Source: a virus
Lineage: Duplodnaviria; Heunggongvirae; Uroviricota; Caudoviricetes
Strand: one strand, 5' to 3'
Length of the DNA: 8,475 nt
Virus record (IMG/VR): IMGVR_UViG_2698536301_000009
Of the stretch, positions 1-8,475 are shown in pieces. Under the pieces are notes generated by a model. The model was not told the DNA's origin. It made no database searches and worked only from the letters and a program-made list of their open reading frames with translations. Position numbers and translations under genes: made by a program. Positions within the stretch are counted from its first letter, which is position 1, and every line of letters starts with the position of its first letter.

Positions 1-846
1 CCTCCTGAGAGACGGGATTTACGCGCATCCAGTGCATCACGCATGACGGTGATCGCATCGGTGCTGTTAACAAGTTCATCAGCCAGTCCGGCATCAATGG
101 CCTCCTGACCGCTGTACACTGCAGCCTCGGTATCCAGCACAGCCTGCACAGACAGGCCGGTATATGCCGACACCTTCTGCGCAAACATCTGGCGGGTTGC
201 GTCCATCCGGGACTGCAGTGTCTCCCGGACGTCATCCGGAAGATGGCTGTAGGGATTGCCATCCACCTTATGGCTGCCGCTGTAAATCAGCGTGATTTCC
301 ACACCCTGTTTCTCCAGGGCAGCACCGTAATTACTGTGAGCCATCATGACGCCGATGGAGCCTGTCCGGGCGGTCTGCGTGACCAGACGCCGGGAGGCGG
401 CACTGGCAAGCAGCTGACCTGCACTAATGATGTCAGCGCAGTCAAATGCCCCCGCCACCATTCCGCCTGGCGTGTCCATATCGAGCAGAATGCCGTCCAC
501 CATCGGGTCGCTGGCAGCCTGTTGCAGACGGGCGATAATGCCGTTGTAACCGGTCATCCCCGAGTACGGCTGCAGCGCCCGCGTCCGGCTGACCAGCGTG
601 CCGGACACCGGCAGCACGGCGATGCCGTTCATGACCTGATAACTGCGGGCCTGTCGTGGTCCGTCATCATCACCGAATAATGCCAGCGTCGCGAGTGCCT
701 CCTGGGCAGTCAGGCTGTCGCCGGACACCGCATCCGTCAGGCGGCTGATCCCAAGCTGGCCTGCAAGCGCACAAAAGAAAACCCGCGCATAGGCGGGTTC
801 AAGCATCAGCGGCTCATTAAAAGCCATGCTGGCAATATGCGGGAGA

Positions 847-866
<20 letters not shown>
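1..866 (-). CDS. C: Head protease / minor capsid protein C (lambda gpC-like), 5' portion only; the gene runs off the window start
   Basis: Minus-strand translation from GTG at 866 gives MTAELRNLPHIASMAFNEPLMLEP... and the window start reads ...VLDTEAAVYSGQEAIDAGLADELVNSTDAITVMRDALDARKSRLSGG, matching lambda gpC as I recall it. Start overlaps the 3' end of B by 20 nt, as in lambda. Not in the ORF track because no stop lies within the window. In-frame internal ATGs at 206 and 188 could mark the nested scaffold Nu3 start, but this is not resolved. Confidence 0.85.
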
Positions 867-4549
<3,683 letters not shown>

Positions 4550-5190
4550 TCTGACAGGTGCCTCTCACTTTGGGCGTGGAGCCACGGATGGACTTTGGCC
4601 AGACCGAGCCTTCAATACGTTTGTCGCCAAGGAACGTCGGAGAGCCTTCCTGTTCAATATCCTCATCAAAGGCAGCAAGTTCATCATAACCCGCCACATC
4701 CACTGACTTTTCACGGTAGTTTTTTGCCGCTTTACCGCCCAGGCACCAGAAGCCACGACCATTGGAAAAACGCTTCATAGTGAGCGTGTTATCCCGGTGC
4801 TTTTTGCCATACCACGGAGCCAGCGCCAGCAGCGACGGAATATCGCGGATGGTCGGCTCAACGTGGGTTTTCATAAAGTTCTCGGCATCACCATCCGTCG
4901 GCAACCAGATAAGGGTGTTGCGCTGCTTATGCTCTATAAAGTAGGCATAAACACCCAGCAGCATTTTGGAATAACCGACACGGGCAGACTTCACCACATT
5001 CACCTCACGGATGTAGTCGCTGCCCATCGCATTCATGATGGCCCGCTGAAAGGGCAGTGTTTCCCAGCGCCCTTCCTGGTATGCGGATTCTTTCGGGAGA
5101 TAGTAATTAGCATCCGCCCATTCAACGGCGGTCTGTGGCTCCGGCCTGAACAGTGAGCGAAGCCCGGCGCGGACAAAATGCCGCAGCCTG

Positions 5191-5736
5191 TTAACCTGAC
5201 TGTTCGATATATTCACTCAGCAACCCCGGTATCAGTTCATCCAGCGCGGCTGCTTTGTTCATGGCTTTGATGATATCCCGTTTCAGGAAATCAACATGTC
5301 GGTTTTCCAGTTCCGGAAAACGCCGCTGCACCGACAGGGGGATCCCGTCGAGAATACTGGCAATTTCACCTGCGATCCGCGACAACACGAAAGTACAGAA
5401 TGCGGTTTCCACCACTTCAGCGGAGTCTCTGGCATTCTTCAGTTCCTGTGCGTCGGCCTGCGCACGCGTAAGTCGATGGCGTTCGTACTCAATAGTCCCT
5501 GGCTGGAGATCTGCCTCGCTGGCCTGCCGCAGTTCTTCAACCTCCCGGCGCAGCTTTTCGTTCTCAATTTCAGCATCCCTTTCGGCATACCATTTTATGA
5601 CGGCGGCAGAGTCATAAAGCACCTCATTACCCTTGCCACCGCCTCGCAGAACGGGCATTCCCTGTTCCTGCCAGTTCTGAATGGTACGGATACTCGCACC
5701 GAAAATGTCAGCCAGCTGCTTTTTGTTGACTTCCAT
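5191..5736 (-). CDS. Nu1: Terminase small subunit (lambda gpNu1)
   Basis: 181-aa ORF MEVNKKQLADIFGASIRTIQNWQEQGMPVLRGGGKGNEVLYDSAAVIKWYAERD..., matching lambda gpNu1 in length and sequence by recall, including the N-terminal winged-HTH region. Its 3' end overlaps the A start by 26 nt, as in lambda. Confidence 0.93.
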   Translation of the reverse strand: MEVNKKQLADIFGASIRTIQNWQEQGMPVLRGGGKGNEVLYDSAAVIKWYAERDAEIENEKLRREVEELRQASEADLQPGTIEYERHRLTRAQADAQELKNARDSAEVVETAFCTFVLSRIAGEIASILDGIPLSVQRRFPELENRHVDFLKRDIIKAMNKAAALDELIPGLLSEYIEQSG

Positions 5737-5757
5737 TGTTCATTCCACGGACAAAAA

Positions 5758-5875
5758 CAGAGAAAGGAAACGACAGAGGCCAAAAAGCTCGCTTTCAGCA
5801 CCTGTCGTTTCCTTTCTTTTCAGGGGGTATTTTAAATAAAAACATTAAGTTACGACGAAGAAGAACGGAAACACC
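5758..5875 (-). promoter_or_regulatory. cosB: gpNu1-binding R elements (R1 about 5761-5779, R2 about 5801-5820, R3 about 5857-5875) with an AT-rich IHF-type bend site (about 5828-5850) between R3 and R2
   Basis: gaaaggaaacgacag at 5763-5777 is a perfect 15-bp inverted repeat of ctgtcgtttcctttc at 5802-5816; a third related copy gaacggaaacacc lies in 5857-5875. The order relative to cosN and Nu1 is the lambda cosB arrangement by recall. Confidence 0.75.
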
Positions 5876-5913
5876 TTAAACCGGAAAATTTTCATAAATA
5901 GCGAAAACCCGCG

Positions 5914-5925
5914 AGGTCGCCGCCC
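5914..5925. other. cosN: the 12-nt cohesive-end sequence (aggtcgccgccc on the plus strand = reverse complement of lambda GGGCGGCGACCT)
   Basis: Exact match to the lambda cohesive end as recalled, flanked on the right by cgtaacctgtcg (lambda right-end terminus) and on the left by cccgcgaggt... (lambda left end). The sequence is continuous across cos. Confidence 0.85.
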
Positions 5926-5960
5926 CGTAACCTGTCGGATCGCCGGAAAGGACCCGCAAA

Positions 5961-5977
5961 ATGATAATAATTATCAT
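5961..5977. repeat. Short palindrome atgataa-taa-ttatcat in the cosQ-proximal region
   Basis: 7-bp perfect inverted arms with a 3-nt spacer, read directly from the sequence, about 36-52 bp from cosN on the right-end side. I could not place cosQ exactly from memory. Confidence 0.4.
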
Positions 5978-6124
5978 CTGCATGTCACAACGTGCATCTA
6001 CGCCATCAAACCACGTCAAATAATCAATTATGACGCAGGTATCATATTAATTGATCTGCATCAACTTAACGTAAAAACAACTTCAGACAATACAAATCAG
6101 CGACACTAAATACGGGACAACCTC

Positions 6125-6358
6125 ATGTCAACGAAGAACAGAACCCGCAGAACAACAATCCGCAACATCCGCTTTCCTAACCAAATGATTGAACAAATTA
6201 ACATCGCTCTTGATCAAAAAGGGTACGGGAATTTCTCAGCCTGGGTCATTGAAGCCTGCCGCCGGAGACTGTGCTCAGAAAAAAGAGTTTCTCCTGAAGC
6301 AAACAAAGAAAAGAGTGACATTACTGAATTGCTCAGAAAACAGATCAGACCAGATTGA
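6125..6358 (+). CDS. Small basic hypothetical protein, possibly a ribbon-helix-helix DNA-binding protein; cos-proximal accessory ORF
   Basis: 77-aa ORF MSTKNRTRRTTIRNIRFPNQMIEQINIALDQKGYGNFSAWVIEACRRRL... Arg/Lys-rich N-terminus, then a short strand-like IRNIRF followed by two helix-like segments, an RHH-like layout. Family membership is my inference. Weak GGGA ribosome-binding site 8 nt upstream. Local sequence is AT-rich compared with the head genes. Confidence 0.55.
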   Translation: MSTKNRTRRTTIRNIRFPNQMIEQINIALDQKGYGNFSAWVIEACRRRLCSEKRVSPEANKEKSDITELLRKQIRPD

Positions 6359-6414
6359 AGCAATTTAGATAATCGTGCAGACTACGCCCCTCATATCACA
6401 TGGAAGGTACTACA

Positions 6415-6825
6415 ATGGCTCAGGTTGCCATTTTTAAACAAATATTCGATAAAGTGCGAAATAATTTAAACTATCACTGGTTTTATTCTGAACTAAAACG
6501 TCACAATGTCTCACATTACATTTACTATTTAGCTACAGAGAATATTCATCTTGTTCTTGAAAACGATAATACGGTTTTAATAAAAGGACAGGGTAAGGTT
6601 GTAAATGTAAGATTTTCAAAAAATAAATGCCTTATAGAAGCCACCTTAAAAGGATTCAAATCAGGAGAGTTATCATTTTACGAATACAGGAAAAATCTTG
6701 CTACAGCAGGGGTTTTCAGATGGATTACAAATATCCACGAAAACAAAAGGTATTACTATACCTTTGATAATTCATTACTCTTTACTGAGAACATTCAGAA
6801 CACTACACAAATATTTCCGCACTAA
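6415..6825 (+). CDS. Hypothetical protein, possibly YbcV/DUF1398-like (the lambdoid 'putative envelope protein' family)
   Basis: Track ORF is 6400..6825 (141 aa). The second ATG at 6415 follows a GGAAGG Shine-Dalgarno-like motif (6402-6407) with 7-nt spacing and gives a 136-aa product [18 protein letters not shown]... The family assignment is from memory of similar prophage proteins and is unverified. AT-rich codon usage. Confidence 0.6.
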
Positions 6826-7081
6826 ATCATAACGTCCGGTTTCTTCCGTGCCAGAACCGGACTCGCTGGCATGATGAAATATGTGTACCCGGTAACCCCG
6901 GTGTGCATCGTTTTTGATTATTCCCGCACACTCGCGCAGAAGGAGTTCCCCGTCGGGCTACGGTCTCTGTTAATACGGGAATACGGCGACGATACAGCGC
7001 ATGATGTGTCAGGCTTGAATACCTTTATCCTTTAAAAGGGATATCAGTTAAGTTATCCCGTGTAGGGTATAAACCATTATC

Positions 7082-7108
7082 AAAGCCACTCTGTAGGAAG
7101 TGGCTTTT
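7082..7108 (+). terminator. Candidate rho-independent terminator for the plus-strand accessory ORFs
   Basis: aaagccact (7082-7090) pairs with agtggcttt (7099-7107) around an 8-nt loop ctgtagga, followed by a T; 9-bp stem with a short T tract. It sits between the convergent plus-strand ORFs and the minus-strand lysis genes. Confidence 0.35.
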
Positions 7109-7316
7109 GTAATGGCAATAAAAAGCCCCGCGAATGCGAGGCTAAATCCTGGTATTTGTAATGACTGGCTCTTATCTCAACGCAGCCCCTTACCGCGCGC
7201 AAAATGCTCAATATCAAGCATCAGCAATGAGATGTTTAATCTGGATTCACTCCAGAAGTGAGCACCACCCTGTCTACAGAGCCAGATGTGAAGGATGATG
7301 AGTAAAATTATCGCTA

Positions 7317-7784
7317 TCATCGAAGGCATTGCGTCCTGATGTATTCCTGAAGCGTTCTCAGTGCTGTTTGGTCGCGGATAATTCCGTCCCGGACACCGAG
7401 AACGTTTCGTCCAGCAACTGGAGAGAGTTCGACGGTGGCATCATTGCCCATGCCGGAGGCGCTGGAGGTTTCGGCTGAGGATGGCACAGGGCATTTTCCT
7501 TTGACGAACACCCGACCACCATTATCAAGCTTGCGCCGAAGAGCATCATTTTCAGCTTTCGCATCAGCTAACTCCTTCGTGTATTTATCATCGAGTGCAT
7601 CAGCATCACGCTGGCGCTGCTGCATGTCAGTAATGGTGGCGTTCGCCTTCTCCAGTTCACTGGCCTTGTTATCGCGCTGTTCTTTGTAGGCGATTGCATT
7701 ATCACGGTAATGATTAACAGCCCATGACAGGCAGACGATGATGCAGATAACCAGAGCGGAGATAATCGCGGTTACCCTGCTCAT
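7317..7784 (-). CDS. Rz: Spanin, inner-membrane subunit (Rz-like, i-spanin)
   Basis: Track ORF 7317..7796; the likely start is ATG at 7784 ([31 protein letters not shown]...), which overlaps the R stop (ATGA). N-terminal transmembrane segment then a coiled-coil-like charged region, related to lambda Rz by recall. Confidence 0.9.
7358..7564 (-). CDS. Rz1: Spanin, outer-membrane lipoprotein subunit (Rz1-like, o-spanin), embedded in the +1 frame of Rz
   Basis: 68-aa [24 protein letters not shown]... with a signal peptide and lipobox (VVGC) followed by a proline-rich stretch [11 protein letters not shown]. Lies wholly inside Rz in a different frame (7784-7564 = 220, not a multiple of 3), the classic Rz/Rz1 arrangement. 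Confidence 0.8.
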
Positions 7785-8278
7785 TGTTGCCCCCACAAAC
7801 AGACCTCACGCTCAATCTCACGACGAGTCATCAGGCCTTTCCATTGCTTACCGCCAGCGTATGCCCAGCGACGTAGCTGGTCACATGCGCCCTTGATATC
7901 GCCCTGGTTTATTTTGCGAAGAAGAGTAGATGTTCTGAAATTGCCTGCGCCCACGTTATAGACGAACGAGTAAAGAGCGCCGCGCGTTGTTTCCGGTATA
8001 TCGACTTTGATGTACGGGTTAATTTGTCTGGCTACCGTGGCAAGGTCTTTATTCAGGAGGGCTTTGCATTCTGCTTCGGTATACGTTTTACCGGGAATGA
8101 TGTCTTTTCCTGTATGCCCGTGACATACAGTCCATACGCCAACGATATCTTTGTATGGTATGTAGCTGACACCTTCCAGACCATCGTTACCACTTGGGCC
8201 AGTGATTAACACTGATGCTATAGCAATTGCTCCGCCACCAATAGCAGCAGCAACGGCTTTTCGTAATGATGGAGGCAT
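7781..8278 (-). CDS. R: SAR endolysin (phage 21 R-type, T4-lysozyme fold / GH24 muramidase)
   Basis: 165-aa [57 protein letters not shown]... The Gly/Ala-rich weakly hydrophobic N-terminal segment (about residues 8-27) fits a signal-anchor-release domain; E35, D44 and T50 sit in the catalytic-triad positions of R21-type lysozymes. Near-identical to phage 21 R as I recall it. Confidence 0.93.
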
Positions 8279-8475
8279 TATTCACCTCTCGCAGCCTTGC
8301 GCTTATCTTCTTTAATCTTGAAATAAAGGTTTGTCAGGTACGTCAGCAGGCCAAATACCAAGCTACCCAGCACACCTATTGCTGCCCACTGTGAGGGCGT
8401 GACTTTATCGTAAGCGTAAACTGACCGCCGTATGTAGCCATCAGACGAGAATTGGTAACTTAGACGCCCATCTGA
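8278..8475 (-). CDS. S: Holin-like protein, 3' portion only (C-terminal transmembrane helix plus charged tail resembling a phage 21 S pinholin); start lies beyond the window end
   Basis: The frame is open to the window edge; 65 codons read [65 protein letters not shown]. The stop TAA overlaps the R start (TAATG). The C-terminal helix and [13 protein letters not shown] tail resemble S21 by recall; the N-proximal visible part does not (see findings). Confidence 0.65.

Follow-up and report, generated by a model that had tools for sequence, protein, structure and literature searches.

An ISEc23-like insertion sequence very probably splits the pinholin gene essD of a decaying lambda/21-type prophage

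Pinholin lysis cassettes and the locus analysed

In the phage 21 model of lysis the pinholin accumulates, its first transmembrane domain (TMD1) leaves the membrane and the second (TMD2) forms small pores, and the resulting depolarisation frees a membrane-tethered SAR endolysin all at once. Park and colleagues are said to have found in 2006 that TMD1 inhibits TMD2 both in cis and in trans. The connector between the two domains of the phage 21 pinholin S21 reads LDQVSPSQ, and S21 constructs from which TMD1 has been removed still form pores ('TMD2 is necessary and sufficient'), with the pores formed by TMD2 alone being transient or unstable (bioRxiv 10.1101/2021.04.20.440580).

Insertion of an insertion sequence (IS) into a late or lysis gene of a prophage is an ordinary and already known kind of event. 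Among IS-disrupted genes of cryptic lambdoid prophages is nmpC::IS5, in the DLP12 prophage of K-12. For the IS66 family, 8-bp repeats and a multi-ORF layout are listed (PMC3281130). The three annotated ISEc23-type copies that served as references in this work (L002, L003 and L004) have a length of 2,532 bp (2,511 bp in L002), carry the genes tnpA-tnpB-tnpC, possess imperfect terminal inverted repeats starting GTAAGCGT and are flanked by 8-bp direct repeats (GATAATGT, CAACATCA and GAATAAAG); the transposases of L003 and L004 carry the RefSeq label 'IS66-like element ISEc23 family'.

We have analysed a viral sequence of 8,475 nucleotides, the whole of which is referred to here as the window. The genes of interest are all on its minus strand and represent the late region of a lambda/21-type prophage, with the following features.

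847-2448, minus strand: portal gene of the lambda/21-type prophage late region
2445-2651, minus strand: gpW gene
2648-4549 and 4284-5216, minus strand: terL, broken into two ORFs
3715-4356 and 4358-4999, minus strand: the two copies of a terL tandem duplication, a direct repeat at 643-nt spacing with an extra base at 4357
5191-5736, minus strand: nu1
7317-7784, minus strand: intact gene for an Rz-type i-spanin, 155 codons, ATG at 7784 (Pfam PF03245, E 1.1e-28)
7358-7564, minus strand: intact Rz1 o-spanin gene, inside Rz in another frame (PF06085, E 3.8e-21)
7781-8278, minus strand: rrrD, intact endolysin gene, 165 residues (PDB 4zpu and 3hde; Pfam PF00959)
8278-8409, minus strand: essD 3' remnant, codons 29-71 and TAA (100% identity to intact essD; PF04971)
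8402-8409, minus strand: presumed IS target site, the 8 bp GATAAAGT, adjoining the IS terminus
8410-8475, plus strand: probable tnpA-proximal end (terminal 66 nt) of an ISEc23-like element, IS66 family (66/66 against the three reference copies)

The Rz coordinates correspond to those of a gene annotated as 'lysis protein' at 9728-10195 of L015, a relative of the window from E. coli ET665.

The closest described relatives of the holin gene in this region are the S21 pinholin of phage 21 and EssD of E. coli DLP12-type prophages (both PF04971). The 43 surviving codons agree at 100% identity with the essD of many E. coli strains and, as in the known systems, they stand directly upstream of an R21/RrrD-type endolysin gene, which they overlap by one base (TAATG; holin TAA at 8280-8278, endolysin ATG at 8278-8276) and which is followed by Rz/Rz1. 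However, codons 1-28, with the dual start and TMD1, are absent from the window and an IS stands in their place, leaving a gene fragment and not a holin. This fragment, Asp29-Glu71, corresponds to residues 26-68 in S21-68 numbering and so resembles the engineered truncations S21 24-68 and S21 30-68, but these were provided with a start codon and a promoter, whereas the remnant has neither in view. The likeness to ISEc23 comprises the terminal 66 nt, a GTAAGCG terminus and an orientation that would put tnpA next to this end, although the window shows the tip of the element only.

The essD remnant and the IS terminus

The original prediction, which was made from the sequence of the window, had drawn attention to a polar segment where the TMD1 of a pinholin would be expected. 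Three-frame translation of the minus strand across 8272-8475 confirmed that the S21-like tail ends just one frame, the other two containing stops, and that this frame is open from 8475 down to the TAA. The polar, non-hydrophobic nature of the segment ahead of the single transmembrane helix is also real: Kyte-Doolittle hydropathy averages -0.77 over the first 22 residues, 5 of which are charged, and the TMD1 region of intact EssD (residues 7-28) has a value of +0.70 and no charged residues. S21-type pinholins are class II holins with two TMDs, the N-terminal one being a weakly hydrophobic SAR domain rich in Gly, Ala and Ser; of this architecture TMD2 alone is present in the window frame, and PF04971 matches it over profile positions 24-63 only (E 1.6e-20), the match of intact EssD covering positions 1-63 (E 2e-35). 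Within the window, neither an ATG, GTG or TTG nor a dual-start motif (Met1/Met4) precedes TMD2 in the holin frame, and the sole in-frame GTG and TTG of the remnant both fall within TMD2. An open stretch of 22 codons is in itself unremarkable, having a chance of about one in three (~0.35, from (61/64)^22).

From codon 29 onwards the remnant has 100% DNA identity to the intact essD of strain 600468 (L001 1418-1633, 71 aa). Intact EssD reads ...YWFLQLL|DKVTPSQW... and the window retains DKVTPSQW onwards, the break falling between Leu28 and Asp29 in the short hydrophilic loop between TMD1 and TMD2; what is left comprises part of this loop, TMD2 and the charged C-terminal tail, with bases 8402-8409 (minus strand) supplying Asp29, Lys30 and the first two bases of Val31. 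When the holin-endolysin stretch was compared by megablast with 5,426 complete E. coli genomes, thousands of essD-rrrD matches were found, many of them at 100%, all starting at window base 8410 and none at 8475. Whole-window alignments to relatives gave 99.3% identity over 1-8410, every one of them stopping at 8410, and these relatives have an intact essD of 71 residues.

On the other side of the break, bases 8410-8475 match all three annotated ISEc23-type copies at 66 of 66 positions and include the terminal inverted repeat GTAAGCGTAAACTGACCGCC, the terminus beginning GTAAGCG. The contexts of these copies are unrelated: L002 sits on a plasmid, L003 interrupts an Rz gene and L004 lies in a genomic island. 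The three copies and the window all part ways directly after ...GCTTAC (CAGTTTACGCTTAC). Across the 5,426 complete E. coli genomes the 66-mer was found at 7,990 places, spread over 2,782 genomes (median 2 and up to 14 copies per genome; 1,440 places on plasmids), lying in or beside unrelated genes of chromosomes and plasmids and adjoining IS66-family tnpA genes. Because of the 66/66 matches, the shared boundary and these 7,990 genomic places, we take bases 8410-8475 to be the tnpA-proximal terminus of an ISEc23-like element. The window would then end 66 nt inside the IS, with the tnpA ATG expected at ~8495, ~20 nt past the window end, and the DNA 100-300 bp beyond 8475 would hold the start of tnpA and not TMD1.

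These observations argue strongly that an ISEc23-like IS abuts essD exactly between Leu28 and Asp29 and splits the pinholin gene, and we consider this very probable. The 22 polar residues are IS DNA that is by chance open in the holin frame and they are part of no protein; they were read as holin because the IS-terminal 66 nt had been translated in that frame. Of the 25 residues originally singled out as odd, these 22 are foreign, whereas the final DKV is native loop. The suggestion of a 5'-disrupted holin has held, since essD is joined to an IS terminus between codons 28 and 29, but the original prediction, while recognising the disruption, missed an IS66-family insertion as its cause. It is such an insertion, an ordinary route to the knock-out of prophage genes, that accounts for the odd start of the holin.

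Three other explanations were weighed against the simple insertion. According to one, which had been offered in the original prediction, the polar segment is part of a naturally occurring holin variant with its start beyond the window, be it a form extended at the N-terminus, a single-TMD holin or an antiholin; this reading could draw on a frame that is open to the window end and on the ability of S21 TMD2 alone to form (transient) pores. However, the segment is 100% identical in DNA to an IS terminus that adjoins thousands of unrelated sequences, and the same frame, followed into the reference IS, offers no start codon and meets a stop after 41 codons. The PF04971 alignment at positions 24-63 leaves the segment outside the family match, and in every near-identical relative the gene is the usual one of 71 residues, so the N-terminus is not conserved; a natural variant is therefore hardly credible. 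The junction might instead be an assembly artefact, in which the end of a repeat (the IS) was attached to essD at a contig end while the real holin is intact. The window does end a mere 66 nt inside a repeat with many copies, which is typical of short-read contigs, and 187 of the 347 collection blocks with the exact portal protein hold it on contigs of 5-10 kb. Moreover, the exact 8409/8410 junction was found neither in the 5,426 complete E. coli genomes nor in the genome-contig and metagenome-contig collections searched, the best complete genome covering 92% of the junction query through chance similarity of the flanks. Against this, the join coincides to the base with the end of the IS, which is what genuine insertions show and what a false join would rarely achieve. 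A contig that breaks off within a repeat also normally marks a true boundary of that repeat, and we regard an artefact as very unlikely.

A real IS junction that did not arise by simple insertion is a better candidate, although still an unlikely one. The 5' part of essD, together with DNA upstream of it, would have been removed or relocated, either through a deletion that the IS caused beside itself or through recombination of two ISEc23 copies, and no TMD1 fragment would then be found on the far side of the element. The median of 2 and maximum of 14 copies of this IS end per E. coli genome provide substrates for recombination. Rearrangement also appears common in this prophage region, because the L015 prophage is already a remnant, in which non-phage genes follow essD within 200 bp and the capsid gene is truncated. 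However, there is no sign of a deletion inside the window, and each of the three reference copies shows a simple insertion flanked by 8-bp repeats, so that a simple insertion remains the reading that we prefer.

The same element is found in another lysis cassette. In the E. coli Esc30 chromosome (L003 749-3750) an identical ISEc23 splits the Rz gene (rzpD) of another prophage and is flanked by the 8-bp repeat CAACATCA. The process would be the same as that proposed here, inactivation of a late or lysis gene of a resident prophage by an IS, although the target gene and the site differ; given the Esc30 rzpD copy, ISEc23 would have hit prophage lysis cassettes more than once.

Expression of the remnant and consequences for lysis

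A simple insertion would place TMD1 ~2.5 kb beyond the junction. Specifically, the plus strand ~2.5 kb beyond 8410 is predicted to read ...GGTGCTCCGTTGACGCTTAC ACTTTATC GAGCAGCTG..., with GGTGCTCCGTTGACGCTTAC as the other IS end, ACTTTATC as the repeated 8 bp and GAGCAGCTG as the start of essD codons 28 to 1. An 8-bp target duplication at essD is presumed, the second copy being expected at the far IS end, outside the window. The IS genes would lie on the plus strand of the window, antisense to the lysis genes, and with ~2.5 kb of antisense IS in between, the genes for the endolysin and the spanins would be separated from any late promoter. Scans of 7700-8475 for promoters and terminators gave nothing above shuffle expectation, and an Rfam scan of the same interval gave no RNA family.

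The TMD2 remnant would be severed from its ribosome-binding site and dual start. In reference ISEc23 the holin frame reaches a stop 41 codons (123 nt) inside the IS and there is no ATG, GTG or TTG in these 41 open codons, a result that uses the reference as a proxy and assumes that the IS of the window matches it beyond the visible 66 nt. Because the IS frame has no start codon and an early stop, the TMD2 remnant would be left with no usable start; judged from the sequence, no canonical start serves it and it appears silent. A fusion protein starting inside the IS was also considered and was rejected, the reference IS having no in-frame start and a stop 41 codons in. On the other side of the element, simple insertion with an 8-bp duplication of GATAAAGT would leave a 5' piece encoding a predicted 31-residue peptide with TMD1 only (MKSM...LQLLDKV), which would end at the TAA in the IS terminus GTAAGCG.

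In the ISEc23 terminus there is also an outward-facing ATG, 32 nt short of the end of the element (window 8441-8439, minus strand). Its frame differs from that of essD and forms a 21-codon ORF (8441-8376, minus strand). Elsewhere, hybrid IS/flank ORFs from this ATG are annotated by RefSeq as 'hypothetical protein' (L002 3535-3657; L004 3535-3816).

Downstream of the remnant, the endolysin gene retains its Shine-Dalgarno sequence, GAGAGGTGA, which is located within the essD remnant. The encoded protein is nearly identical to RrrD, as it matches PDB 4zpu (Lysozyme RrrD) with an E of 3.4e-109 and 3hde with an E of 2.4e-108, in both cases over residues 1-165, and Pfam PF00959 with an E of 8.9e-46. 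We take this RrrD/R21-like endolysin to be of the SAR type, as predicted from R21. By extension from phage 21 lysis, in a cell without the pinholin the membrane would not depolarise on schedule and the intact, presumed SAR endolysin would leave the membrane slowly and asynchronously.

Since TMD2 can form pores alone, the remnant could be toxic if it were translated. It is conceivable, but highly improbable, that read-through transcripts allow weak translation of the remnant from a non-canonical start, to give an untimed pinholin with a single TMD, or that the TMD1-only peptide acts in trans as an antiholin-like inhibitor. If this were true, the lysis timing of other phages in the cell would be altered, the targets of an antiholin acting in trans being the S21-type pinholins of co-resident prophages.

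The terL duplication and prophage decay

A second lesion lies in terL, where a tandem duplication adds a net 643 nt, shifts the frame and splits the gene. A single stretch of L015 (6769-7410) aligns to both copies, which differ from each other at 14 of 642 positions, and the identity to L015 changes at the duplication junction, from 98.7% on the portal (low-coordinate) side to 99.7% on the side of the lysis genes. From these figures the duplication looks more like a join of two diverged terL alleles, for example from two lambdoid prophages, than like recent slippage. Relatives that are 99.3% identical to the window lack the duplication and have a single TerL of 641 residues. Exact-protein look-ups of the 310-aa and 633-aa terL pieces found nothing on record. 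Look-ups with shorter terL starts (568 and 557 aa) led to contigs that have no sign of the duplication, with Nu1 and terL ~200-400 nt apart and with an intact holin where the holin region is in view, and look-ups of Nu1 and portal led only to common lambdoid contexts with intact holins of 68-71 residues.

The relative L015, 99.3% identical to the window, is itself already a prophage remnant, as its stretches 1-2300 and 10900-13800 show. An integrase/AlpA element interrupts the major capsid gene, and essD is followed by HTH, DUF523/DUF1722 and lipocalin genes and not by Q or early genes. A further difference concerns the S49 peptidase/gpC gene at window ~426 (minus strand), where L015 has 55 bases (3426-3480) and the window one base, a net difference of 54 nt, or 18 codons, that is in frame; homologues of this protease exist in 439- and 443-residue forms. 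In the contig collections, the longest contig carrying the exact portal protein (847-2448) is only 5-10 kb in 187 of 347 blocks, which suggests that assemblies of the portal region are often short contigs with repeats at their ends and fits a window that ends in an IS.

The original prediction had also linked the holin to a terL lesion in a decaying prophage, and in this it was right, the lesion being the frameshifting 643-nt duplication that the 99.3%-identical relatives lack. With this second lesion beside the split pinholin, the prophage is defective and decaying. Two inactivating lesions are now present, split pinholin and frameshifted terL, so the prophage is very unlikely to package its DNA or to lyse its host on schedule. 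For the biology of holins this case brings nothing new, and its value is mainly one for annotation, as an open frame that continues out of a gene into the end of an IS can mimic a novel protein variant.
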